A stretch of 22,007 nucleotides of DNA from Candidatus Omnitrophota bacterium (GCA_029004355.1 JAQURV010000016.1:1-22007), one strand, 5' to 3'; positions 2,938-20,912 are shown, counted from the stretch's first letter. Notes: generated by a model not told the origin, from the letters alone. Made by a program: numbers and translations.

Positions 2938-4045
2938 TATCCTCGTTGTAGATGATGACGCCGGCGCAAGGAAGAGCTTCGGGAATATATTGAAGCTTAA
3001 AGGCTATGGCGTAGAGACCGCGGGGACAGGGCAGGAAGCGATCTCTAAGATCAAGGAGAAGTTCTTCAATATAGTTTTTTTGGATATACGGCTGCCCGAC
3101 ATCAGCGGCCTGGAAGTCTTGAAGACCATAAGCGACTTCAATGAAGATATCGTGACTATAATGGTGACCGCCTACGCGTCTATAGATTCATCCATCGATG
3201 CTATAAATAAAGACGCCTACTCTTATATTACAAAACCCGTAAATATGGACCAGGTACTGCAGGTTATCGGCAAGGCGCTCGAGAAACAGCGCCTGGCGAT
3301 GGAGAATAAGCGTCTATTAAAAGAGCTGAAAGAGGCTAACGAAAAATTAAGAGAGATGGATGCCCGCAAGTCGGATTTTGTGGCCAACGTATCCCATGAG
3401 TTCAAGAACCCGCTGGCCGTCATAAAACAGTCCCTTACCATTGTGCTCGAGGGGATGGCGGGGGAGATAAACCCGAAACAGAAGGAGATACTCGAAGCGG
3501 GACAAAGGAATATAGAGCGGCTCATACGGTTGGTCATGGACCTCCTCGACCTGTCCAAAATAGAATCCGGAAAGATAGAGATGAAGAGGGATAAGATCGA
3601 TATAACGTCGCTGGTAGATCAACTGCTGAAGGATTACGAGAATGAGATTTCCAGAAAAAACCTCGTACTTAATAAAGATATCCAGCCGGATATGGGGATG
3701 GTCTGGGCCGACAAGGACAAATTGACGGAAGTCATCATAAATCTTCTGAATAACGCCATAAAGTATACAAACAAAGGCTCCGTAACCGTTAAGCTTAGCG
3801 GGACGGAGGACGAGATACGTTTCGAGGTCGCCGATACCGGACCCGGCATCAAGAAGGAATATCTTGAAAAGATATTCGATAAGTTCGAGCGCATACTGGC
3901 TGAGAGGCAGGAAGGGACGGGCCTGGGCCTTTCCATCGCCAAAGATATAGTAAGATTACACAAAGGAAATATCTGGGTGGAGAGCGAACCCGGGAAGGGC
4001 AGTAAATTCATTTTTACCCTGCCGCGGGACTTAAGACGCTCTTAA
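2903..4045 (+). CDS. Hybrid response regulator/histidine kinase (REC-HisKA-HATPase_c)
   Basis: Receiver motifs 'ILVVDDD', 'FLDIRLPD', 'MVTAYAS' and 'TKP'. H-box 'SHEFKNPLAVI'. ATPase motifs 'NLLNNAIKYT', 'DTGPGI' and 'GTGLGLSI'. The start is either ATG 2903 (35-nt overlap with the upstream gene) or in-frame GTG 2930 (the GTGATTGA overlap with the upstream stop). Confidence 0.85.
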   Translation: MRFPGRRINVIDILVVDDDAGARKSFGNILKLKGYGVETAGTGQEAISKIKEKFFNIVFLDIRLPDISGLEVLKTISDFNEDIVTIMVTAYASIDSSIDAINKDAYSYITKPVNMDQVLQVIGKALEKQRLAMENKRLLKELKEANEKLREMDARKSDFVANVSHEFKNPLAVIKQSLTIVLEGMAGEINPKQKEILEAGQRNIERLIRLVMDLLDLSKIESGKIEMKRDKIDITSLVDQLLKDYENEISRKNLVLNKDIQPDMGMVWADKDKLTEVIINLLNNAIKYTNKGSVTVKLSGTEDEIRFEVADTGPGIKKEYLEKIFDKFERILAERQEGTGLGLSIAKDIVRLHKGNIWVESEPGKGSKFIFTLPRDLRRS

Positions 4046-5313
4046 TCTTTCGCTTTTCTGTCTTTCCCCAACAGGTCTCTCAGCTTTTCCAGATCCAGAC
4101 CGCTCTCATCGATAAACTGCTTTATATTCGCCCCGCCTTCGGCGTCGAGATTGATCCCAAAAAATTTCTGGGCGTTCGTACCGCTCATGATCCACTTCAC
4201 GTCGGCTTTTTGTATGGCGGCGCCGAGAGCGTTAAACTTGGAGATCATGATCTCTTTCTGGATATCGAGCATCTTGACGTTTATGGCCATGTCGTCGAAC
4301 TTCTTCATCGCCTCTGCGAGTTTCAGCGTTCCCGCCGCGTCGGCCTCTTTCTTTATCTGTATTATATTGGCTTCCGCCTTCCCGACGAGCTGTATCTGGC
4401 TTGACTGGCCTTCGGCCTCAACGGTATATTTTATCTTTTGCGCCATGGCCAGCTGTTCTATCTTCTGTTTCTCTATCTCCGCCTGGCCTACCTGCAGCTT
4501 CCTCATGGCCTCTATCCTCTGGGCGTTGGCCTCCGCTTCCTTATCGGCTATCTCCTGGTTCTTTATCTGTTCAGCCATCCCGATCTGTTTATCTTTCTCG
4601 ATCTGCCGTTTGCGGTAGATCTCCTCCGCCTCCGCCTTTGCCAGTTCCGCCTCTTTGGTCGTGGTAGCCACTTTGATATCCGCGTCTCTCCTTATTTCCG
4701 CGGCAACCTTTCTTTCTATATCCTGAATAATGGTACTGCCTACTACATCCTTTATATCCTTCAATTCCAGGTCGACCAGCTCTATGCCCCACTTCGGGAA
4801 TACCTGTTCCACTTCCTTGGTTATAGCCTGATCTAATAGCGATCTGTTCATATAAATATCCAAAAGCGTCTGTTTTGTGGTAACGGTCCTGCCGACGCTC
4901 TCCATAATGGCTCTCAGGTCTTCGGAAAGCCTTATAAAATCAAAACCCATCTCTTTTGAAGTATCGGTGAGTATTAACCTTTCGACCGCCAGGCTGATAT
5001 CTTTTATATTGATAAAGCACATTATGTCGCAGACGAACTTGGCCATATTCTTGTCGTTCAATTTTATATCGTTAACGGGAATGGCCAGATTGCAAAGAGG
5101 CAGTTTGTGTAATTTAGTTATGAAAGGGATCACCCAATATGCGCTCTTGCCTGTTCGTGAGGAGAATATGGTCTTGGAATTACGCAAGATCCTGATATGC
5201 ACTTCGTTGACGGGAACTATCCTGTAAAGGCCGATCATTCCGCCGAATATGTGCCTTAGAAAATAAATGACCGGTGCGGCAATTACAATTGATACTATTG
5301 TCAACGTCGTCAT
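4042..5313 (-). CDS. SPFH/Band-7 flotillin-like membrane protein (YqiK/FloA type)
   Basis: N-terminal TM helix, an SPFH core and a long Ala/Glu/Lys/Gln-rich coiled coil ('AEAEEIYRKRQIEKDKQIGMAEQIKNQEIADKEAEANAQRIEAMRK'). The RBS AGGAGGG precedes the ATG at 5313. Its stop overlaps the stop of the convergent hybrid kinase. Confidence 0.8.
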   Translation of the reverse strand: MTTLTIVSIVIAAPVIYFLRHIFGGMIGLYRIVPVNEVHIRILRNSKTIFSSRTGKSAYWVIPFITKLHKLPLCNLAIPVNDIKLNDKNMAKFVCDIMCFINIKDISLAVERLILTDTSKEMGFDFIRLSEDLRAIMESVGRTVTTKQTLLDIYMNRSLLDQAITKEVEQVFPKWGIELVDLELKDIKDVVGSTIIQDIERKVAAEIRRDADIKVATTTKEAELAKAEAEEIYRKRQIEKDKQIGMAEQIKNQEIADKEAEANAQRIEAMRKLQVGQAEIEKQKIEQLAMAQKIKYTVEAEGQSSQIQLVGKAEANIIQIKKEADAAGTLKLAEAMKKFDDMAINVKMLDIQKEIMISKFNALGAAIQKADVKWIMSGTNAQKFFGINLDAEGGANIKQFIDESGLDLEKLRDLLGKDRKAKD

Positions 5314-5385: not shown

Positions 5386-6444
5386 CTACTTACGATCTTT
5401 AATTTTCAAAGCGACATTGACGAGGATTATAAGGGCGGGGACTTCTATCAGGGGACCTATAACGGTCGCAAAAGCCTGGTTAGAGCTGATCCCGAAGATC
5501 GCGACCGCAACCGCAATAGCAAGCTCGAAATCGTTGCTGGCCGCCGTAAAAGAAGCGGCGGTCGTCTGTCCGTAACCGATCCCCATCTTTCGGGCGATGA
5601 AGAACGTGACAAACCACATAAAGAAGAAATATATGAGGAGCGGCACCGCGATCCTTAATACGTCGAAAGGCAGCTGTATGATGTATTGTCCTTTCAGGGA
5701 AAACATGACGACGATAGTAAAGAGAAGCGCGACGAGCGTTATGGGGCTTATCCTCGGGATAAAGACATCTTCAAACCACCTCTTCCCTTTTAGCTTAATC
5801 AGGCCGGCGCGGGTGAGTACCCCTCCGAGAAACGGTATCCCTAAGTAAAAAAATACGGTTTTGGCCGCCTCGACCATCGAAATGCTGATATTCAATCCCT
5901 TCGCAAGTCCCAGCCAGTTAAGGCCGACGGTAATAAATAGATAGATGTAGGCTGCGTAGAACAAGACCTGGAAAAGCGCGTTAAAAGCGACGAGTCCTAT
6001 GGCAAATTCCCTATCGCCTTCCGCAAGCTCGTTCCAGACGATAACCATCGCTATACATCTGGCCAGCCCTACCAAGATCACGCCGATCATATACTCCGGA
6101 TAACCCCTAAGGAAGACTATCGCAAGGATGAACATCACCAGCGGACCGACTATCCAGTTTTGCACGAGAGAAAGGATGAGAAGTTTCGGTTTATTGAATA
6201 CCTTCCCGATCTCCTCGTATTTTACTTTTGCAAGGGGCGGATACATCATAAGGATGAGACCTATGGCGATCGGGACCGAGGTCGTCCCGACCTGCATACC
6301 GGATATGATCTTAGTAACGCCGGGGACAAAATACCCCAAAGCTATCCCGGCTCCCATCGCAATAAATATAAGCGGGGTTAAAAGCTTGTCCAATAAGGAC
6401 AGTTCCCGCCTTAATTCCTTTGCCGCATGCTTGGTATATTGCAT
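5386..6444 (-). CDS. acr3: ACR3-family arsenite efflux permease
   Basis: ACR3 signatures are present: '[24 protein letters not shown]', '[18 protein letters not shown]' and the conserved Cys in '[11 protein letters not shown]'. It has about 10 TM segments and is about 350 aa. It lies 4 nt downstream of arsM. Confidence 0.85.
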
Positions 6445-6448
6445 CCGG

Positions 6449-7225
6449 CTATTCCTTTTTTGCCGATATCTTCACGCTGGCTATCGCGTCTTCGGTACAT
6501 TTAAATTCCTTGAACATAGCGTCTGTGGGATAACTCGTCTGACCGATCACTTTGACTTCTTTAAACCCGGCAAGCTTTATAAACCTCAGGTATTCATCTT
6601 TCTTGATCGCTCCGGCAAGACAACCCACGTATGCCTCGACCGATCCCTTTATTATGTCCGGCAGATCTTTGACCAGGACCAGATCGGAAACCATGAGCCG
6701 CCCTCCGGGTTTAAGCACCCTGAAAGCCTCTTTAAAAACCCTCTGTTTTTCAGGTGATAGATTAATGACACAGTTTGATATAATGACGTCGATCGAAGCA
6801 TCCTCGACGGGCAGTTTTTCGATCTCACCCAGCCTGAATTCCACATTCGTATACTTACCCTTCCCGGCATTCTTCCGGGCTTTTTCGATCATCTCCGGTG
6901 TCATATCAACGCCTATAACCCGGCCGGTCTTGCCGACTTTTGGAGAAGCAAGGAATGCGTCAAATCCGGCGCCGCTTCCCAGATCAAGCACGACATCGCC
7001 CTCCCTCAAAGATGCAATAGCAACCGGGTTGCCGCATCCAAGGCCCAGGTTGGCGCCTTCGGGAACGATATCAATGTCTGTGTCGCTATAACCGACTGTT
7101 TTACTTATATTTTTCACAGAGCTTGCGCTCCCGCAGCATGAATCCGTAAGGCAGCAAGAAACGTTCTGCGACGCTACTTTGGCGTATTTTTCTTTCACTA
7201 TCTTTTTTATCTTCCTGTCTTTCAT
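6449..7225 (-). CDS. arsM: Arsenite S-adenosylmethionine methyltransferase ArsM
   Basis: SAM motif I 'VLDLGSGAG'. N-terminal cysteine cluster '[11 protein letters not shown]'. Further Cys at 'GLGCGNP', 'SNCVINL' and 'YVGCLAG'. The true start is the internal ATG at 7225 ('MKDRKIKK') with RBS GGGGGTG. The listed 6449-7525 ORF is a 5' read-through. The start overlaps the ccdA stop as ATGA. Confidence 0.85.
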
Positions 7226-7896
7226 ATAAGCACCCCCAGATAAATAGCTATATAATACAGCCCTACTGCCATAAAGATAGCTCCGGTAATTTTTCTTGCG
7301 TATACCTCGAGTCTGGCCACCTTGCCGAACCAATGGTTTAAAGAGGTGATCCCCAATGCAATGCCCAGGGCAAAAATAAATACAGGCAGGCCAGTACCGA
7401 GCCCATATATGAAGGGCAGGCTCAACCCTACCTTGCTCTCTACCGCCAGCGGTATGAGGCTCCCGAAAAAGAGCGCGGCCGATATAGGGCAAAACGACAG
7501 CGCAAAGATAAAGCCTAGGATGCAAGCGCCGAATATGCCGGACCCGGCGAGCCTGGTTTGATGTCTTTCCTGGATTATCAGGCTCGGGATATTGAGTTTA
7601 AAAATATCCAGCAAAAAAAGGCCCGCGATTATCAGGATCGGACCCAATGCTTTGTTCATATACTTCTGCAGAAAGTTCGCCGCCAGGGGCACGCTTAATA
7701 GAGACTTCACGATAAGAAAACCCAATATAGCATACGCCAGCATCCTGCCTATGGTATACGAGATCCCCGATAAAAATACCGTCTTTGGATGGGTTATCTT
7801 CCTGGAGAGGAATGAGATCGCCGCGATATTCGTCGCGAGCGGGCACGGGCTTATTGAGGTAAGGACGCCGAGCCAGAGGGCCGTCAGGATGATCAT
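7222..7896 (-). CDS. ccdA: CcdA/DsbD-family transmembrane thiol-disulfide electron transporter
   Basis: Six predicted TM helices. The first redox Cys is in 'SISPCPL' and the second Cys in 'ALSFCPISAA', the typical CcdA arrangement. The RBS AAGGAG lies upstream of ATG 7896. Confidence 0.8.
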   Translation of the reverse strand: MIILTALWLGVLTSISPCPLATNIAAISFLSRKITHPKTVFLSGISYTIGRMLAYAILGFLIVKSLLSVPLAANFLQKYMNKALGPILIIAGLFLLDIFKLNIPSLIIQERHQTRLAGSGIFGACILGFIFALSFCPISAALFFGSLIPLAVESKVGLSLPFIYGLGTGLPVFIFALGIALGITSLNHWFGKVARLEVYARKITGAIFMAVGLYYIAIYLGVLI

Positions 7897-7899
7897 CTA

Positions 7900-8307
7900 T
7901 TAAAGCTCCTTGAGATACTTTTCTATCTCTGTTCTTATATATTGGTGAAAGGCGTCCTTGTTCCTCAGGTATTCCCATACCTTGGTGAGATTGTCGGATT
8001 TGATCTCCTTACCGCCCTTTACCAGAGAGAGTACGACGGATTTCGTATAAAGCTTGTACTCGTCCGTAAAATGTTCGTTACCTTTCGTTTCGACGTTGAC
8101 TACCTTAAAAACTACCGTGCCCGCATCCAATTCTTTCCGGAAATATTTCTCGACCGCCTCTTTCGTGTTCTGTTCGATCGTTTTGCAATTGACGCATCGG
8201 AAATTACCGTGAAAGTAATAGACTATCACGCTGTTTGCGGGAGCGGCTTCGCATACAAACGAAACGAATATGAGCGCCGCAACTAAAAGGAGCCGTGCGC
8301 GTTTCAT
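7900..8307 (-). CDS. Secreted thioredoxin/glutaredoxin-fold protein with a CVNC motif
   Basis: The true start is ATG 8307 ('MKRARLLLVAALIFVSFVCEA', signal peptide with AXA site) behind RBS GGGGGAG. The mature N-terminus 'VIVYYFHGNFRCVNCKTIEQNTKEAVEKY' matches the beta1-CxxC-alpha1 pattern of Grx/NrdH/ArsC-like folds. About 110 mature residues. Confidence 0.5.
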   Translation of the reverse strand: MKRARLLLVAALIFVSFVCEAAPANSVIVYYFHGNFRCVNCKTIEQNTKEAVEKYFRKELDAGTVVFKVVNVETKGNEHFTDEYKLYTKSVVLSLVKGGKEIKSDNLTKVWEYLRNKDAFHQYIRTEIEKYLKEL

Positions 8308-8543
8308 TTCTCCCCCGAGATCCATTTTTTTATTTCTTCCGCCTTGGGAATGCGGCCGTAGCATTTGATCTTGCCGTTAATGCGCAACCCCGGCGTCTGC
8401 ATAATACCCGCGTCCACTATCTTATTTATCTCTTTGACCTTTTCGACGTCCGCGACGATATTGAGTTCCGAAAGGACGCTCTTTACGCCCTTTTCAACCT
8501 CACCGCACCGATGGCATCCCGGCCCGAATATCTCTATCTTCAT
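8304..8543 (-). CDS. Small thioredoxin-family protein (TIGR00412-like redox-active disulfide protein 2), CHRC active site
   Basis: 'MKIEIFGPGCHRCGE...' followed by '...GIMQTPGLRINGKIKCYGRIPKAEEIKKWI' matches the ~78-aa TM0996/MTH895 family. The true start is ATG 8543 with RBS GGGGGGAGAG. Its stop overlaps the next start as ATGA. Confidence 0.75.
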   Translation of the reverse strand: MKIEIFGPGCHRCGEVEKGVKSVLSELNIVADVEKVKEINKIVDAGIMQTPGLRINGKIKCYGRIPKAEEIKKWISGEK

Positions 8544-8559
8544 CGTGCTCTCCCCCCTG

Positions 8560-9615
8560 TTAAAACCGCGGCACAAAAAACCAGAACACAAGACCTGCTA
8601 TAGTTCCGCATATCCACATAAGCGTCGCATATACCGCCGGAACGCGCGGCTTAACTATCTTGCATACCCCTAGTATCGAAGGCAGGCTTAAAGCCGGGCC
8701 CGTCAGAAGAAATGCCATCGCGGCGCCTGTTCCCATGCCGGACTCCAGGAACCCCCGGACGAGCGGTATCTCGACTAAGGTCGGGGTATACATGAATACG
8801 CCGATAGCCGAGGATAGCATGACCGGTAAAATGCCGTTGCCCAGGTATTTGATTATGACCGATGGGGGCAAAAATGCCTTTACGAGGCCCGCGCAGATAA
8901 CGCCCAAGAATATCAAAGGAAGCACCATCTTTACGAATTCCCACGAATACAATGCCATATTGACCAACCTCTTGCCAAAACCCTGATCTTCCTGCGATCC
9001 TCCATCGGCTTCCGTATCTATACGCACCGGTTCGGGTTCGGGAAGCCTGTTCTTAAAGATCCTGTCTGTGGTATATCCTACGAGGATCCCTGCCGTTACC
9101 GCAACCATAGCTCTTGCTACGGCAAACTTCCAGCCGAGAAGACCCAGAGTGAGCAGGATCGCTGCCGGGTTAAATGCGGGAGCGGCCAGAAGAAAGGTGA
9201 TCGCAGGACCAAGGCCTGCGCCTCTTTTATATAATCCCCCGAAGAGAGGAATGATGCTGCATGAGCACATCGAAAGGAGCGGCCCCCCGAGACCGGCCAC
9301 CGCGTACGGCGTAAAACCTCTGCCTGATCCCATAAGTTTGATGACTTTGTCTCTCGGCGCAAATTCCTGGAGCGCGCCGGCGGCTATAAAGGCCAGCAAA
9401 AGGCATAGCCATGAATGCTTTACATAGTCGATGATGGTAAAGACCAGGAACATGTGCACCGGTATCTTGTGCTCCTGCAAAAGTTGCGCGGTAATGACCT
9501 TGTTCTCGGCCATTGTGACCTTGACGCCCGTCCATGCCCCGGTCCATTCGTATACGATTATTACCGCGAAGATCAGGACCAGTATCGTTATCGCGAATAT
9601 CGTCCTTCTATCCAT
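8560..9615 (-). CDS. arsP: ArsP-like / DUF318 (YraQ) permease with a 'MCSCSIIP' motif
   Basis: About 8-10 TM helices with a two-repeat architecture. The Cys motif 'LSMCSCSIIPLF' resembles the ArsP 'TPFCSCSxxP' signature. It is paired with a TIGR00412-like thioredoxin immediately downstream. Confidence 0.7.
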   Translation of the reverse strand: MDRRTIFAITILVLIFAVIIVYEWTGAWTGVKVTMAENKVITAQLLQEHKIPVHMFLVFTIIDYVKHSWLCLLLAFIAAGALQEFAPRDKVIKLMGSGRGFTPYAVAGLGGPLLSMCSCSIIPLFGGLYKRGAGLGPAITFLLAAPAFNPAAILLTLGLLGWKFAVARAMVAVTAGILVGYTTDRIFKNRLPEPEPVRIDTEADGGSQEDQGFGKRLVNMALYSWEFVKMVLPLIFLGVICAGLVKAFLPPSVIIKYLGNGILPVMLSSAIGVFMYTPTLVEIPLVRGFLESGMGTGAAMAFLLTGPALSLPSILGVCKIVKPRVPAVYATLMWICGTIAGLVFWFFVPRF

Positions 9616-9617
9616 AA

Positions 9618-9920
9618 TTACCGTCTCTTCCTTGTTATTTTACAGCAGCCGCCCTCGATCCTTATAGCCTTGATATTGACCAGTCCGTCGGCGATCTTAT
9701 TGCGGGCGGATGATACGATCCTTGAGAATGTCGGTCTCGATATTTTGAGTCTTTTAGCCGCATCTATCTGTTTTAACCCGTCCAGATCGGCCAGCCTGAC
9801 GGCCTCAAATTCATCCAGGGTCAAACAGATACATTTAACCTTATTTAAGGGTTTGCAGATGGGCTTGAAACATCTCTCGCCCGGCAGGCATTTTATCCAT
9901 CTAGTCTTCTTCGGTCTCAT
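9618..9920 (-). CDS. DUF134 (UPF0251) predicted DNA-binding protein, Cys-rich; candidate operon regulator
   Basis: 'MRPKKTRWIKCLPGERCFKP...LTLDEFEAVRLADLDGLKQIDAAKRLKISRPTFSRIVSSARNKIADGLVNIKAIRIEGG' matches the DUF134 N-terminus plus a sigma-70 region-4-like HTH. It has seven Cys in 100 aa, including a vicinal 'GGCCK'. It is the first gene after the promoter/operator and sits 2 nt upstream of arsP. Confidence 0.65.
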   Translation of the reverse strand: MRPKKTRWIKCLPGERCFKPICKPLNKVKCICLTLDEFEAVRLADLDGLKQIDAAKRLKISRPTFSRIVSSARNKIADGLVNIKAIRIEGGCCKITRKRR

Positions 9921-9982
9921 CTATCCGCCATTATGAACATATGTTCATAATTAATTATACCACATCCCGGTGATTATGCAAA
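9921..9982 (-). promoter_or_regulatory. Sigma70-type promoter (TTGCAT-N16-TATAAT) with a perfect 20-bp palindromic operator over the +1 region
   Basis: The minus strand reads tTTGCATaatcaccgggatgtggTATAATtaaTTATGAACATATGTTCATAAtggcggatagATG. The -35 is at 9981-9976 and the -10 at 9959-9954. The palindrome TTATGAACATATGTTCATAA spans 9950-9931. The DUF134 ATG is at 9920. Confidence 0.55.
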
Positions 9983-11320
9983 TTATTTTTGGATCTTACG
10001 GAAGGCGTGCTTTATCTTTCTTTCCATTATGAAATCGTACCTAAGGTATAGACGCGTCCAGGCCGAGCGTTCCGTCGACATCCTGACGGCTTCGCGCAAA
10101 AACTCGTAGTCGACTCCTTTTATCTTAGGCAGGATGGGGGCGCGCGAGTAATCGCTGTGGGCCTTTATCAGAGAAAGGTCGTTCTTTATGCAGTAATCGT
10201 AAAGGTCGCTCCCCGGATGAGGCGTAAAGAACGCGGGGCTCATCCTGTACGGCTTTATCTTCCGTATCATCCTGACCGTATCCATGGCCTCTTCTCTTGT
10301 CTCCGTCGGGATCCCGAACATGTAGTTGGCCCACATCCTTATGCCGTGTTTCTTGCAGATCTTCGCGGCCCTGTAGTTCATCTCGGCGGTCGAGCCTTTT
10401 CTCAATAGTTTGAGTATGCGGTCGTTGCCGCTTTCGAAACCGATGAGGAACATGCCGAGGCCGGAGCTCTTCATGATCCTTATCATATCTTCGTTCTTGC
10501 AGATTATATCCGCCCTGCTCTGGCAAACGAACGGCGCCTTGAACCCGTTCTTTCTGTACTCTCTGCAGAATTTTTCGATCCAGCCCCTGTCTTCGGTAAG
10601 GCAGTCGTCGTGGAACATCATGCTTTGAAAATGATACCTGTCGCGGAGTTCGTTCAGTTCTTTGATTATATTGTCGACCGACCTGCGCCTTACCTTGTTC
10701 CCGAATATCTTGCGCTCGGCAGGCTGGCAGAAGCTGCAGTTGTAGATGCATCCCCTGCCCGCTATAAGCGTGACGAACGGCCTGTCCAGAAAGCTCTCTA
10801 TGGGCGATTCCTTGTAACGGAATAGTTCCCTGTCCGCGAAAGGAAGGCTGTTGAGGTCGGGGTGCTCGCCCGTTATCACCTTCTCCGCCGGGGCGCCCTT
10901 TTCGATATCCGCGAGCAGTTTTACAAAGCTCGTCTCCCCTTCGCCGATGATAATATGGTCGATGTAGTTATTCGATGTGAGTTCTTCCGGCATTATGCTG
11001 GGGTGCGGCCCGCCTATGACGACTTTTACGTTAGGCAGAGCTGCCTTGGCAGCCTTCGCCGCTTCAACGGCGTAGTCAAAATCGACGCTCATCATCGTTA
11101 TGGCTACGACGTCGGGAGAGAGTTCTTTCAGGTCCTTTTGAAAATCGTCCCACCCGGACAGCTCTCTTAGGTCTATGAGGTTCGTCAGGTGCCCGGCCCT
11201 TTTGGCGCAGGCGCTTAAATAGCAGAGTCCGTGGTGCAGCGAGCTAAAAGTTATAGGCTGCCTGGCCTTGGCAAAACCTGTTTCACCGACAGCCGGAAGC
11301 ACAAAGACTATCTTCAGCAT
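9983..11320 (-). CDS. Cobalamin-binding (class B) radical SAM enzyme
   Basis: The N-terminal Rossmann-like B12-binding region begins 'KIVFVLPAV...'. The radical SAM cluster motif is 'GRGCIYNCSFCQ' (CxxxCxxC), followed by 'GFESGNDRIL'. 445 aa. A TATAAT lies only 8-13 nt upstream of the ATG and there is no obvious SD. Confidence 0.85.
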   Translation of the reverse strand: MLKIVFVLPAVGETGFAKARQPITFSSLHHGLCYLSACAKRAGHLTNLIDLRELSGWDDFQKDLKELSPDVVAITMMSVDFDYAVEAAKAAKAALPNVKVVIGGPHPSIMPEELTSNNYIDHIIIGEGETSFVKLLADIEKGAPAEKVITGEHPDLNSLPFADRELFRYKESPIESFLDRPFVTLIAGRGCIYNCSFCQPAERKIFGNKVRRRSVDNIIKELNELRDRYHFQSMMFHDDCLTEDRGWIEKFCREYRKNGFKAPFVCQSRADIICKNEDMIRIMKSSGLGMFLIGFESGNDRILKLLRKGSTAEMNYRAAKICKKHGIRMWANYMFGIPTETREEAMDTVRMIRKIKPYRMSPAFFTPHPGSDLYDYCIKNDLSLIKAHSDYSRAPILPKIKGVDYEFLREAVRMSTERSAWTRLYLRYDFIMERKIKHAFRKIQK

Positions 11321-11917: not shown

Positions 11918-12520
11918 CTACATTTCTAATCTCAATTCCTTATTTTTATATTGCAGTTTCACGGAGGTGCTTGTAATAGCGACAACCTTCGCGCTATCCA
12001 CTTCGTCGCCCACGGCTACGGTCTTACCGTTAATAATAGCCTTAGAGCCCATGATGCCTGCCAGCTCGAATTCACTTGCCGGTTTGGGCTGAGCGGCGGC
12101 GGCTGTTTTGGCCTTAGGCGATTTATCGAGTACTGCTTTCATGATGCCGGCGAAGGTCGGCGCGTTCCTGTATCCTACGACAGTATCCACGGTCTTGCCG
12201 GCCGCGCTGAAGAATATGACGGTGGGATATCCCCGCAGTTTATATTTTGAGAACGCGTTCTTATCGACCCCGCAATCCACCTTAACACAGATGAATCTTT
12301 CGGCCAGTTTATCCACGGTCTCATCCACATAAACATCTTCGTCGAGTTTTTTACACCAGCCGCACCATTCCGTGTAGAAATCGGCCATGACGGGTTTGCC
12401 TTCGGCCTTTGCCTTTTTGAACGCCCCGTCAAGGTCTGTTTCCCAGGAGATCGCCCAGGCCTCCGGACCCGAAGTCAGCACAAACGCGAATAATAGAAAC
12501 GCTGTTATGGTCTTTTTCAT
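11918..12520 (-). CDS. Secreted thioredoxin (CGWC active site)
   Basis: Signal peptide 'MKKTITAFLLFAFVLTSGPEAWA'. Canonical Trx motif 'FYTEWCGWCKKLD', with 'YPTVIFF' downstream. A C-terminal extension of about 70 aa follows. The start abuts the BASS gene stop as TAGATG, and the RBS AGGAAGG lies inside the upstream gene. Confidence 0.8.
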   Translation of the reverse strand: MKKTITAFLLFAFVLTSGPEAWAISWETDLDGAFKKAKAEGKPVMADFYTEWCGWCKKLDEDVYVDETVDKLAERFICVKVDCGVDKNAFSKYKLRGYPTVIFFSAAGKTVDTVVGYRNAPTFAGIMKAVLDKSPKAKTAAAAQPKPASEFELAGIMGSKAIINGKTVAVGDEVDSAKVVAITSTSVKLQYKNKELRLEM

Positions 12521-13471
12521 CTATGCGCCTTCCTGTTTTTCCGCCGGGTCAGGCATCCGGTTCCAGATGCTCGCCAATACGGCCGCGCTTATTATACACC
12601 ATGTGGCGAAGAGCGCATTGGGTATCGCGGCTTCCGCCGAGGCATATTTTATCGCAAGGACCGCGCCGAGGCCTGCGTTCTGCATGCCCACGCCTATGGC
12701 AAGCGTACGGCGCTGTTTCCGGTTGAATTTAAATAATATGCCCGCGCCGTAACCTAATACCAGCCCGGAGATATTGAGCAGGACCACCGAGATAAAGACA
12801 ATGACCGTGATGCCTCCAAGCGCTCCTCTGTTGAGCGCGACGACCAGGCCGCAGATGAAGGCTATGAATATCGTGGAGAACGCCGGGAATACGGGACGCA
12901 TCTTCTCGACGGGCCGTTTGAAATAATGCCGCGCGGTAAGGCCAAGGAAGAGCGGCACGATCACCATGAGCATGATGCTCTGCATCATGGGCCAGAACTG
13001 GATCGGCACGTATTCGTGGGCAAAGAAATACATGAGGGCCGGGGTAACGACCGGCGATATGAGCGTAGTACCCGTAGTGAGCGCGACCGACAGCGCGACA
13101 TCCGCCTCGGCTATGTATGACATAACGCCTGCCGCCATCGCGTCGGGGACGGCCCCCGCGAGGATGAGCCCGAAGGCAAGCGCCGGCGGGAGATCCAGGA
13201 GCCGCACTATGATAACCGCCGCGAGGGGCATGATGGTGAACTGCGCCAGTATTCCCAGGATAACGAGCCTCGGTTTTTTAAAGATGGGCTCGAAGTCTTT
13301 CACCGAAAGGAGCGCGCCTATGCCGAACATCGTTGCCGCGAAGAACCAGTCTATAAAAGGCTTGAGCGGGATAAAGGCTTGTGGGAAAAAGTAAGCCGCA
13401 GCCACGGCGATGACCACCCAGAATACGAGATAGTCCGTGAAATATTCGGCTATCCTGTTAATAAGATGCAT
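12521..13471 (-). CDS. Bile acid:sodium symporter (BASS/SBF) family transporter, in the BART superfamily like ACR3
   Basis: About 9-10 TM helices. Family-typical 'AIGVGMQNAGLGAVLA' and 'LILAGAVPDAMAAGVMS' segments. 316 aa. Confidence 0.75.
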   Translation of the reverse strand: MHLINRIAEYFTDYLVFWVVIAVAAAYFFPQAFIPLKPFIDWFFAATMFGIGALLSVKDFEPIFKKPRLVILGILAQFTIMPLAAVIIVRLLDLPPALAFGLILAGAVPDAMAAGVMSYIAEADVALSVALTTGTTLISPVVTPALMYFFAHEYVPIQFWPMMQSIMLMVIVPLFLGLTARHYFKRPVEKMRPVFPAFSTIFIAFICGLVVALNRGALGGITVIVFISVVLLNISGLVLGYGAGILFKFNRKQRRTLAIGVGMQNAGLGAVLAIKYASAEAAIPNALFATWCIISAAVLASIWNRMPDPAEKQEGA

Positions 13472-18684: not shown

Positions 18685-19710
18685 TCATGTCTCCTTATCG
18701 TGTGCCAGCGCGATAGCCTTTTCGCTCAACATCTTCCATTTATCATATTGTAAATAAAGGCCTTTTATCTTCGAATTGCCTTTACTCAGGATCGTCCTGC
18801 CGTCCGTTTTTCTTATTTTTATTCTACTCTTAAATCCAAGAAAGTCAAGAAGATGGCATATTCTCAAAATGAGCGTTTTTGTGTTCTTTGCGTTATCTGC
18901 GGTGAAGACTATCGCATCTATGCCTCCCAGGACAGAGATAAACGCCCCTGTATATCTCGCGATATGATATTTCAATATTTCCGGCGCCTGATCGGGAAGG
19001 CAGTTTAGGCCGCTTCCCCTGGACAACAGATCGTTTATCCGCTCAAACGACATCCCTTCCGCGTTAAGCTGAAAAATGATCGTAGGGTCGATATCGCCGC
19101 ATGCGGTTTGCGACGGTATGCCCTCCACCGAGGTAAACCCTACCGTTGTCTCTACGGGGGCCCCGTTCTTTATGGCCGCTATATTGGCGGCGTTCCCCAG
19201 ATATACGGATATTACTTTTTGAACGCCCCTGCCAAATACCCGCCTGGCTTCCTCCCATGCCCGCTCGTGACATAGCCCATAACCTCCGTACCGCCTGACG
19301 CCTTTTTTACTCAGCTCATATGGTATAGCATAGGTGCTGGCCTTGTCGGGAAGACATATGAAAAAAGACGTATCGCAAAATAGCACGTGACGGTGGTCCG
19401 CGAATTCCATCGACAGGTATTTCGCCATCTTGTAGATAATACTATTATGCTCCGGCAGGAATCTAACGCACTTCTCCATCCTGGCCAGCGATCGGCCGGT
19501 CAATATGCTGACGGGTTTGTCTATCTCCTCTCCGCCGTTAGGCAATAGATAGCCGAAGAGGATCCTTTCGCCGTTATTTTCTTTCGCTATTTTCTGCCGG
19601 ACCTTATCAAAGCATGATCCGCCGAATATAATTCTATCGCGCGATGAACGCCCGTTCTTTACGGTACGCCATCGTATGAACGGCGGATCCGGTTCGAATA
19701 TTATTATCAT
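18685..19710 (-). CDS. Acetate-kinase-family paralog with degenerate catalytic residues (probable pseudo-kinase)
   Basis: Aligns to AckA via 'VKNGRSS' (cf. NCGSSS), 'RRYGGYGLCHE' (cf. KYGFHGxSH), 'VYLGNAANIAAIKNG', 'TACGDIDP' (Arg to Ala) and 'VLGGIDAIVFTA'. The 'FCDTSFF' segment replaces 'FDTAFH', losing the His. It is about 60 aa shorter than AckA. Its start overlaps the upstream ackA stop as ATGA. Confidence 0.7.
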   Translation of the reverse strand: MIIIFEPDPPFIRWRTVKNGRSSRDRIIFGGSCFDKVRQKIAKENNGERILFGYLLPNGGEEIDKPVSILTGRSLARMEKCVRFLPEHNSIIYKMAKYLSMEFADHRHVLFCDTSFFICLPDKASTYAIPYELSKKGVRRYGGYGLCHERAWEEARRVFGRGVQKVISVYLGNAANIAAIKNGAPVETTVGFTSVEGIPSQTACGDIDPTIIFQLNAEGMSFERINDLLSRGSGLNCLPDQAPEILKYHIARYTGAFISVLGGIDAIVFTADNAKNTKTLILRICHLLDFLGFKSRIKIRKTDGRTILSKGNSKIKGLYLQYDKWKMLSEKAIALAHDKET

Positions 19711-20912
19711 CTTTTTGCCTTTAACAGCTTCAGGCCCTCTAAACAGATGGCCAGTTCTTCCTCGGCAGGAATAGAGACTATCTTGACGCTGGCATTTTTC
19801 GCATTCAATACAGAGATGACATTGCCGACGGCCTTACGGTTCAGCCTTTTATCCAGAACTATACCGCACCATTCCATCTCCCGACACACCTTCTCTCTTA
19901 TAAGAGGGTTCCGGAGGCCTATATCGTCCGTGAATACCAGTGCGTCGATGCCCCCGAGTATCGTTATATAGCTGCCGATGTATTTTTTCAAACGGTGTAT
20001 ATACATCTCCAGGGCCAGCCCCGCCTGCTCCTCCTCTGTGGATATACGATGGATGATGTCGCGTATATCGCTTGAGAACCCGGATATCCCCAACAGTCCA
20101 CTGTCTTTGTTGAGCATATCCATAAGCTGGTCTGGCCTGTAGCCGTATGTCGCCATCAGATATATGGCGAGCATCGGGTCTATGTCCCCGCAGCGCGTGC
20201 TCATCATAAGCCCGGGCAGAGGCGAATAACCCATGGAATTGTCGAGTGATATGCCGCCGTTTATCGCGGCGACACTTGATCCTCCGGTCCCCAGGTGACA
20301 TGCCACCATCTTTACTTTTTCCGGCGGCCGTTTTAGTATCCCGGGAACGGTCTTGGCCACATACGAGTAAGAGAGTCCGTGAAAACCATATTTTCTGAAT
20401 CCGAATCTTTTTCTTATTTTTTCAGGCAGGGCATACGTATACGCGTAATACGGTATTGTTGAATGGAACGCGGTATCGAACGTCACATACTGTTTTATGC
20501 GGGGAAATCGTTTAGAGCACTCCCGCATCACTGCCAGCGTGACGGGGTTATGGATCGGCGCAAGCGGCAGGCATAGATACAGCTTATTTAAGACATTCCT
20601 GTCGATAAAGACCGATCTGCTGAAGTAGGCGCCGCCGTTCACGAACCGGTGGCCTATATAGTCTATGCCGATATCGCTCTCACTTAGGTGCCGCAATATC
20701 AGGATAGCCGCCTGGTCATGGCTCTTTATAGGCACTACATCTTTCCGTACGCTTTGCTGAAAACGATGCTCTATAAAGGACGGTTCTTTGCCTTTTACGC
20801 CTACCCTGTGGGCCTTTCCGGATATTATTTCCTTCTGATCTTTCGACGCGGCTATACCGAAGACGTTATATGTCAGCGATGAACTTCCGCAATTGAAGAC
20901 TAAGATATTCAA
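19707..20912 (-). CDS. ackA: Acetate (or propionate/butyrate) kinase, canonical
   Basis: 'ILVFNCGSSSL', 'GHRFVNGG', 'FDTAFHST', 'KYGFHGLSY', 'CHLGTGGSSVAAINGG', 'STRCGDIDP' and 'IPAEEELAI' are all conserved. The start is TTG, with GGAG 8-11 nt upstream. Confidence 0.85.
   Translation of the reverse strand: MNILVFNCGSSSLTYNVFGIAASKDQKEIISGKAHRVGVKGKEPSFIEHRFQQSVRKDVVPIKSHDQAAILILRHLSESDIGIDYIGHRFVNGGAYFSRSVFIDRNVLNKLYLCLPLAPIHNPVTLAVMRECSKRFPRIKQYVTFDTAFHSTIPYYAYTYALPEKIRKRFGFRKYGFHGLSYSYVAKTVPGILKRPPEKVKMVACHLGTGGSSVAAINGGISLDNSMGYSPLPGLMMSTRCGDIDPMLAIYLMATYGYRPDQLMDMLNKDSGLLGISGFSSDIRDIIHRISTEEEQAGLALEMYIHRLKKYIGSYITILGGIDALVFTDDIGLRNPLIREKVCREMEWCGIVLDKRLNRKAVGNVISVLNAKNASVKIVSIPAEEELAICLEGLKLLKAKR

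Follow-up and report, generated by a model that had tools for sequence, protein, structure and literature searches.

A cysteine-rich DUF134 protein as a candidate arsenic-responsive repressor of an arsenic resistance operon in Candidatus Omnitrophota

How an arsenic resistance operon without a recognizable ArsR regulator might be controlled is the question raised by a 22,007-nt stretch of DNA (GCA_029004355.1 JAQURV010000016.1:1-22007; called the window here), which is a complete contig of a Candidatus Omnitrophota metagenome-assembled genome (MAG). On its minus strand, at positions 9920..5386, seven closely packed open reading frames (ORFs) encode in this order a DUF134 protein, an ArsP_1-family permease, ArsE, ArsF, ArsG, ArsM and ACR3. 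To our knowledge, bacterial arsenic sensing is credited almost entirely to ArsR/SmtB proteins. The structural genes of this operon are already known and annotated and the new element is its regulator; the DUF134 protein appears, from the comparisons presented here, to take the place of ArsR. Our reading of the whole locus, to which we assign a probability of roughly 0.6, is that DUF134 would be the autorepressor of an ars operon built of known modules, that arsenic would release it from the DNA, and that ArsE, ArsG and ArsF would form a thiol relay.

The lack of the usual regulator holds up on closer inspection. No ArsR (HTH_5 or HTH_20) or ArsC (LMWPc or ArsC) domain was found by Pfam in any sizeable ORF of the window, and tblastn of the window with one ArsR and seven LMWP-type ArsC queries gave a best E value of 0.17, so the original prediction that neither gene is present in the 22 kb is borne out by both profile and tblastn searches. 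A genome scan with one genome per species recovered 80 sister loci led by DUF134 orthologues of 73-91% identity, all of them in Omnitrophota or mislabelled relatives. ArsR-like genes were found by tblastn in only 2 of these 80 loci, one of them within a second sub-cluster of locus L068, and the families listed for 142 small ORFs beside the sister operons included none of the ArsR kind. The missing arsC is not special, because ArsC, with LMWP-type genes in 13 of the 80 sister loci, is an optional accessory. The original prediction had seen an ars operon without any metalloregulator, with a newly recruited thiol relay tied to methylation and efflux. The absence of ArsR and ArsC from the window and the tight coupling of all seven genes agree with that view, but we give it very little credence, since a conserved operator and a helix-turn-helix (HTH) protein encoded by the first gene argue for regulation, and the supposedly new module is the known arsEFG, which occurs elsewhere with a permease, ArsC and ACR3 under ArsR.

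The DUF134 gene (9618..9920, minus strand), which the original prediction had treated as one more gene of the operon, is preceded by a promoter and a palindrome that was then overlooked. The -35 hexamer TTGCAT (9976..9981) begins immediately past the stop codon of the radical-SAM gene upstream and is followed by the extended -10 element TGgTATAAT (9954..9962, with the -10 box at 9959-9954), both on the minus strand and both seen in the sequence and in a promoter scan, which gave a TTTGCA-17-TATAAT match with a TG extension at 9982-9954. Between the -10 box and the DUF134 start codon (9920) there is a perfect 22-bp palindrome, ATTATGAACATATGTTCATAAT (9930-9951; 11 + 11 nt, 100% complementary), which we propose as the DUF134 operator. 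It begins 2 nt past the -10 box and should thus span the transcription start, where a repressor site would be expected.

This arrangement is conserved far beyond the window. Among 110 unique upstream regions of orthologous loci, TTGACA with at most one mismatch was found in 104, with a modal spacing to the operator of 24 nt, and the layout TTGACA-N17-(TG)TAAAnT-2 nt-operator likewise in 104. The consensus over the 110 regions is TTGACA-N11-TnTGnTAAAnT-nG-TTATGAACATATGTTCATAAC, and the flanks are otherwise unconserved. In 81 of 82 genome loci, 66 of which have it in exact form, the operator core, TTATGAAC-N4-GTTCATAA, is found no more than 60 nt ahead of the DUF134 start, and the operator motif has one match in the window compared to none in 100 shuffled sequences. 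Outside the DUF134 upstream regions, only two further core sites with up to two mismatches were found in 1.1 Mb. These two sites, each with two mismatches, are in locus L050 (8900-8919 and 9625-9644; same contig as L101) and flank a TetR-like ORF just 3' of acr3, with TolC-like and HlyD-like efflux genes following downstream; they may be DUF134 targets or TetR sites.

Evidence that DUF134 itself recognizes the palindrome comes from the way in which protein and DNA vary together. The half-site follows the first residues of the recognition helix: a helix starting with SRPT goes with ATGAAC..GTTCAT (103/110), HRST with ATGCAC..GTGCAT (7 of 13, the remainder looking like degenerate versions), HQST with ATGCAT-ATAT-ATGCAT (two loci read), and the SRQT helix of generic DUF134 proteins with GCATATGC (20/20). 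Both arms change jointly while the central four bases vary, as predicted for a dimeric HTH protein on its own promoter, and this covariation would be hard to explain if some other factor acted at the palindrome. A leader RNA hairpin, or a sequence bound by an unrelated global regulator, with DUF134 having its role elsewhere, would be the alternative. A perfect 22-bp palindrome can fold as RNA and the symmetric A-to-C and T-to-G changes would keep the hairpin, but the transcript should begin inside the palindrome, the half-site classes follow the recognition helix of DUF134 with the central 4 nt varying freely, there is no Rfam match, and the motif is essentially limited to DUF134 upstream regions. 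The palindrome of generic DUF134 genes is furthermore placed between the -35 and -10 elements or overlaps them, in DNA that is not transcribed. We consider this alternative highly improbable, and conclude from the comparative data that DUF134 is very probably an autoregulator that binds the palindrome.

Generic DUF134 genes (L138-L163, and the paralogues L048 12957-13247, L054 4504-4794 and L074 11246-11542), whose products have the SRQT helix and no Cys-Cys pair, carry a related palindrome with the core GCATATGC, e.g., TTATGAGCATATGCCCATAAT, in the promoter position given above. From its sequences, the whole DUF134 family looks autoregulated with a common operator architecture.

The DUF134/UPF0251 protein of the window has 100 residues and matches PF02001 with 74.7 bits (gathering score, 27). 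Its other Pfam matches are only weak ones to HTH_23 and Sigma70_r4_2, the ArsR/SmtB winged-helix domains HTH_5 and HTH_20 were not found by Pfam, and the match to NF003257 falls below the equivalog cutoff (63.6 versus 115). In the AlphaFold model, residues 30-80 form a three-helix HTH core with a predicted local distance difference test (pLDDT) score of 73-89, which resembles sigma-70 region 4, DeoR-N and KorA and not the winged helices of ArsR, with a superposition of about 1 Å and a weak Foldseek E value (about 0.03). A sequence search of the PDB returned no DUF134 structure, and in the literature we found nothing that links DUF134/UPF0251 to arsenic, to an operator or to any function, the one co-occurrence being a gene-table coincidence. 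The protein has five cysteines, C11, C17, C22, C92 and C93, and could be an arsenic sensor as well as an autorepressor. Its orthologues share C11, C17 and C22 together with an invariant C-terminal G-G-C-C; among 245 unique proteins of the clade, C11 is present in 95%, C17 in 98%, C22 in 95% and C92-C93 in 100%. C17, C22 and the Cys-Cys pair are lacking in the general DUF134 family (150 representatives after 50% clustering).

The cysteines coincide with the arsenic genes. In each sister locus with enough downstream DNA, the gene directly after DUF134 encodes an ArsP-like permease or ACR3. When distant members of the Cys-Cys type were used as seeds for a metagenome scan, Cys-Cys-type as well as generic DUF134 genes were recovered, and an ars gene lay directly downstream of the former in 113 of 119 loci, or in about 116 when three loci mis-scored because of start offsets are added, compared to none of 22 for the latter. 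Generic DUF134 genes instead have genes with a Nitro_FeMo-Co domain (NifX-like) following them (17 of 36 ORFs scanned). The Cys-Cys type is also found beyond Omnitrophota, with DUF134-led ars operons in MAGs labelled Pseudomonadota and candidate division FCPU426.

A vicinal cysteine pair with a third thiol is a known solution for an As(III) site in ArsR proteins, e.g., AfArsR and CgArsR. In the mechanism that we propose, a DUF134 dimer on TTATGAAC-N4-GTTCATAA, over the transcription start, would shut down its own seven-gene transcript. Trivalent arsenic, either arsenite or a trivalent organoarsenical, would bind the Cys-Cys pair together with Cys11, Cys17 and Cys22 of the N-terminal arm, and the arsenic-bound protein would leave the DNA so that the operon is induced. 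ACR3 would then export arsenite and ArsM would methylate it, the permease is assumed to be an exporter of trivalent organoarsenicals, and ArsE would pass thiol electrons through ArsG to ArsF, from the cytoplasm to the periplasm, for an arsenic-related reduction. By analogy with the ArsR proteins, we lean slightly toward the direct release of DUF134 by trivalent arsenic at the acquired thiols.

Several points weigh against this interpretation. The DNA binding, repression and arsenic response of DUF134 are all deduced from comparative genomics. The promoter and terminator scan as a whole showed no enrichment over shuffled sequences, and our promoter call is therefore based on conservation across loci; the earlier claim of one promoter ahead of the cluster is upheld by the geometry conserved in orthologous loci but not by the scan in isolation. 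The Cys-bearing N- and C-terminal segments of DUF134 have pLDDT values below 50, so that neither the proximity of these segments nor the geometry of a metal site can be assessed from the model, and the five cysteines could equally ligate zinc or an Fe-S cluster. The substrate of the permease is uncertain, because it is assigned by ArsP_1 family membership only and its best NCBIfam matches (SaoE and the SO_0444 Cu/Zn family) are below the cutoff; its identity to annotated plasmid "permease" genes is at most 38%.

If the cysteines hold a structural zinc ion or Fe-S cluster, DUF134 could still be the autorepressor on the palindrome but would respond to redox or thiol stress, or to damage of the cluster, in place of binding arsenic directly. 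The C-x5-C-x4-C ... CC pattern would suit a metal or cluster as well, generic DUF134 genes adjoin those for Nitro_FeMo-Co and NUBPL-type cofactor proteins, and the unmodelled termini leave room for such a role. We nevertheless regard it as unlikely, since the cysteines were gained precisely in the clade with downstream ars genes and since the vicinal pair with a third thiol is the As(III) site design of AfArsR and CgArsR.

The remainder of the operon is assembled from known ars modules, namely, an ArsP-family permease, arsEFG, arsM and acr3. Profile searches against Pfam and NCBIfam/TIGRFAM with curated cutoffs gave matches for all seven genes, mostly above the cutoffs. Continuing on the minus strand, the permease (8560..9615; 351 residues) is a DUF318/YraQ-like protein with a match to PF03773 of 207.1 bits against a cutoff of 32.3 and an MCSCS motif. 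ArsE (8304..8543; 79 residues) is a small cytoplasmic thioredoxin-like protein of the MTH895/ArsE type (TIGR00412, 89.9 bits against 62; Thioredoxin_3) with the CxxC motif CHRC, ArsF (7900..8307; 135 residues) is a thioredoxin-fold protein with a signal peptide and the CxxC motif CVNC (NF040494, 113.8 bits against 60), and ArsG (7222..7896; 224 residues) is a CcdA/DsbD-like membrane protein (NF040495, 272.1 bits against 200; DsbD_2/DsbD_TM) with membrane cysteines in SPCP and FCP. ArsM, the As(III) S-adenosylmethionine methyltransferase (6449..7225; 258 residues), matches NF008823 with 357.3 bits against 263, and the arsenite efflux permease ACR3 (5386..6444; 352 residues) matches TIGR00832 with 443.8 bits against 282.8. 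All the gene identities that had been predicted thus hold, as does the tight coupling of the genes, with junctions read from the sequence as 2, 16, -4 (ATGA), 3, -4 (ATGA) and 4 nt in the direction of the operon. The catalytic and motif cysteines that had been described as intact are also conserved across orthologues: C24, C25, C30, C31, C64, C152 and C202 of ArsM in 26 to 27 of 27, C130 within RCIAMV of ACR3 in 40 of 40, and the C-S-C motif of the permease in 106 to 108 of 108. DUF134-to-ArsG segments identical to that of the window are also present in GCA_028712245.1 and two Logan assemblies.

The synteny that had been predicted recurs in the 80 loci as DUF134-led ars operons, but the gene order of the window itself is rare. 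After the first permease or ACR3 gene the usual order is (ArsM)-ArsE-ArsF-ArsG-ACR3, and among the 42 loci with at least 6.5 kb of downstream DNA the commonest order is DUF134-ArsP-ArsM-ArsE-ArsF-ArsG-ACR3 (13 loci), whereas ArsM after ArsG, as here, is seldom seen. In these 42 loci, ArsP was present in 40, ArsE and ArsF in 35 each, ArsG in 34, ACR3 in 31 and ArsM in 16. DUF134 is far more conserved than its neighbors, with ArsP matches ranging from 24 to 90% identity. The permease of the window belongs to a minority subtype, which has at least 84% identity in only about five loci, and the versions in most sister operons have 24-46%; the identity of the regulator, in contrast, stays at 73% or higher across L004-L083, and the C-S-C motif is present in all permease versions. 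Among the operon variants, several loci have an additional gene after ArsE, for a Cys-rich DGC-domain protein (L046 4593-5000, L057 5284-5694 and L071 3790-4200), and a protein of about 269 residues that ends in a putative Fe-S cluster domain (PF04060) is encoded directly after ArsG in six Omnitrophota operons, at positions that include L033 5726-6535, L037 12691-13500, L071 5281-6093 and L075 12641-13450.

The association of CcdA and thioredoxin genes with arsenic genes had been put forward as a new wiring, with the module "fused" between the thioredoxin and ArsM. Neither part of this survives: ArsE, ArsF and ArsG are separate genes, and together they are arsEFG, for which curated NCBIfam models exist and which is found as the same set under ArsR-type regulators on plasmids of cultured Bacteroidota. 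The GenBank/NCBI label "ArsF family" is already attached to the identical protein P0271. In PMC9144182, ArsEFG (named in 2019; Chen, Zhang and Rosen, Environ Sci Technol 53:6182) is cited as a roxarsone/nitarsone resistance system and ArsG is placed among the efflux transporters. The published role, reduction of the nitro group of roxarsone/nitarsone and efflux of the amine products, differs from a plain thiol relay and is a further point against our interpretation.

All components of a CcdA/DsbD-type relay are present, i.e., a membrane protein with two cysteines, a CxxC protein in the cytoplasm as the donor and, as the acceptor, a secreted protein with a thioredoxin fold and CxxC, and these cysteines are invariant among orthologues (C10/C13 of ArsE, 58/58; C38/C41 of ArsF, 52/52; C18/C136 of ArsG, 50/50). 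The thioredoxin fold of the secreted protein, which had been proposed from the sequence, is supported by an AlphaFold model (pLDDT, 87) for which Foldseek matched thioredoxins only and which has the CxxC at the start of helix 1; a Pfam thioredoxin match to ArsF was not obtained. In an FCPU426 genome (L166 8764-10399), the ArsF/ArsG slot is occupied by a canonical Thioredoxin_2 lipoprotein (CIPC) and a DsbD_TM protein. Because of the invariant redox cysteines, the fold of ArsF and this replacement of the slot by a thioredoxin lipoprotein with DsbD_TM, we favor a thiol relay from the cytoplasm to the periplasm, ArsE-ArsG-ArsF, as the probable function, the electron flow being something that we infer.

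The competing reading is that ArsE and ArsF act as nitro-group reductases for trivalent roxarsone and nitarsone and that ArsG effluxes the aromatic amine arsenicals, with no generic relay involved. The NCBIfam names with matches above cutoff and the citation in PMC9144182 speak for it. However, the CcdA-type cysteines of ArsG and the CxxC motifs of ArsE and ArsF are kept in all orthologues, ArsF, which carries a signal peptide, shows nothing beyond a thioredoxin fold, the same slot can be filled by a thioredoxin lipoprotein and DsbD_TM, and the module is present in 34 to 35 of the 42 long loci of uncultured groundwater and lake Omnitrophota and also in oral Prevotella, settings in which synthetic poultry-feed arsenicals are unlikely selective agents. 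We therefore find nitro reduction doubtful as the full account, although the two readings are compatible and not mutually exclusive. The habitat and the near-universal presence of the module in Omnitrophota suggest that the native substrate of ArsEFG is other than the synthetic nitroaromatic arsenicals.

The genes on either side of the operon were considered as members and rejected, since across species neither the upstream radical-SAM gene nor the downstream flotillin gene is a conserved neighbor of the operon. The upstream gene (9983-11320, minus strand), which encodes a B12-binding radical-SAM protein, has its stop codon directly against the ars -35 hexamer. The scanned region, which reached to 10100 and included the 3' end of this gene, showed no terminator-like site, so that read-through from it into the operon is possible. 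On the other side, the scan found no terminator after acr3; the flotillin/SPFH gene (4042-5313, minus strand) starts 72 nt past acr3 with its own Shine-Dalgarno sequence and with no terminator-like site in between. Further upstream, at 11918-13471 on the minus strand, a BASS/SBF-family transporter gene (PanS-like, below cutoff) abuts with zero gap a gene for a secreted DsbD-gamma-like thioredoxin (Thioredoxin_7), and in the close relatives L013 and L017 the SBF gene and the DUF6515 gene close to it are again seen upstream of the operon. At 18685-20912, also on the minus strand, there are tandem genes of the acetate/propionate kinase family with a 4-nt overlap; the downstream copy (341 residues) matches only part of the Pfam model and may be truncated or divergent.

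Taken together, the comparative data give what we would call an even chance to a broader proposal. According to this, the Cys-rich DUF134 clade would be a new family of arsenic-sensing repressors unrelated to ArsR, with a 20-bp operator and a code relating recognition helix to half-site, that controls ars operons in Omnitrophota and at least some other uncultured lineages; DUF134 proteins as a whole would be autoregulated palindrome-binding factors; and the native task of arsEFG would be that of a transmembrane thiol relay in arsenic detoxification, not one specific to nitroaromatics. If this is true, a second and structurally unrelated sensor family would represent another independent origin of thiol-based metalloid sensing, and DUF134/UPF0251 would for the first time have a function, together with a DNA target and a specificity code that can be tested. 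The operator and the 100-residue protein are small enough to be moved into Escherichia coli and could provide an orthogonal biosensor for arsenic. A further question raised by the data is whether the ArsEFG names that annotation pipelines now propagate fit the native function of this module, near universal as it is in uncultured anaerobes. The data also show that a conserved capacity for arsenic methylation and efflux exists in Omnitrophota, a phylum about which little is known.

Known systems resemble the operon in different parts. Generic DUF134/UPF0251 proteins share PF02001 and the HTH core with the regulator, and their own promoters contain a palindrome with the core GCATATGC that is related to the operator of the window, but they have no C17, C22 or Cys-Cys pair, have SRQT in place of SRPT, and precede Nitro_FeMo-Co genes and not ars genes. 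Compared with the ArsEFG system of Shewanella putrefaciens described by Chen, Zhang and Rosen, ArsE, ArsF and ArsG of the window are likewise encoded side by side and all score above the NCBIfam cutoffs, while the habitat and near-universality in Omnitrophota would suggest a native substrate other than synthetic nitroaromatic arsenicals. The relays from thioredoxin via CcdA/DsbD to a periplasmic thioredoxin, as in cytochrome c maturation, likewise have a CxxC donor, a PC-type membrane protein with two cysteines and a secreted thioredoxin fold, but the module of the window lies within an ars operon and its ArsF lacks a Pfam thioredoxin match.

R773 ArsR, AfArsR and CgArsR, metalloregulators whose three-thiol As(III) sites evolved convergently, are small autorepressors encoded by the first gene, as DUF134 would be, and they too have a palindrome overlapping the promoter and vicinal cysteines with further thiols in flexible termini; their fold and family are unrelated to those of DUF134. 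Close counterparts of the operon are found on plasmids. Fulvitalea axinellae pFA1 carries ArsR-Trx-ArsF-ArsG-permease, a plasmid of Prevotella nigrescens F0103 carries wHTH-ArsF-ArsG-Trx-permease-ArsC-ACR3, and a Leptolinea plasmid carries ArsR, an ArsE-like protein and a permease. The Prevotella and Fulvitalea operons share with the window a close-packed set of ArsE-type thioredoxin, ArsF, ArsG, ArsP_1 permease and ACR3 behind a small regulator encoded by the first gene, and the ArsG proteins are 39-42% identical. Unlike these arsEFG operons, the window has ArsM and is without ArsC, and its regulator is a DUF134 protein with an HTH like that of sigma-70 region 4, in contrast to the ArsR/SmtB winged helix on the plasmids. 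Since the same structural genes stand behind ArsR-type regulators elsewhere, DUF134 occupies the slot of ArsR.

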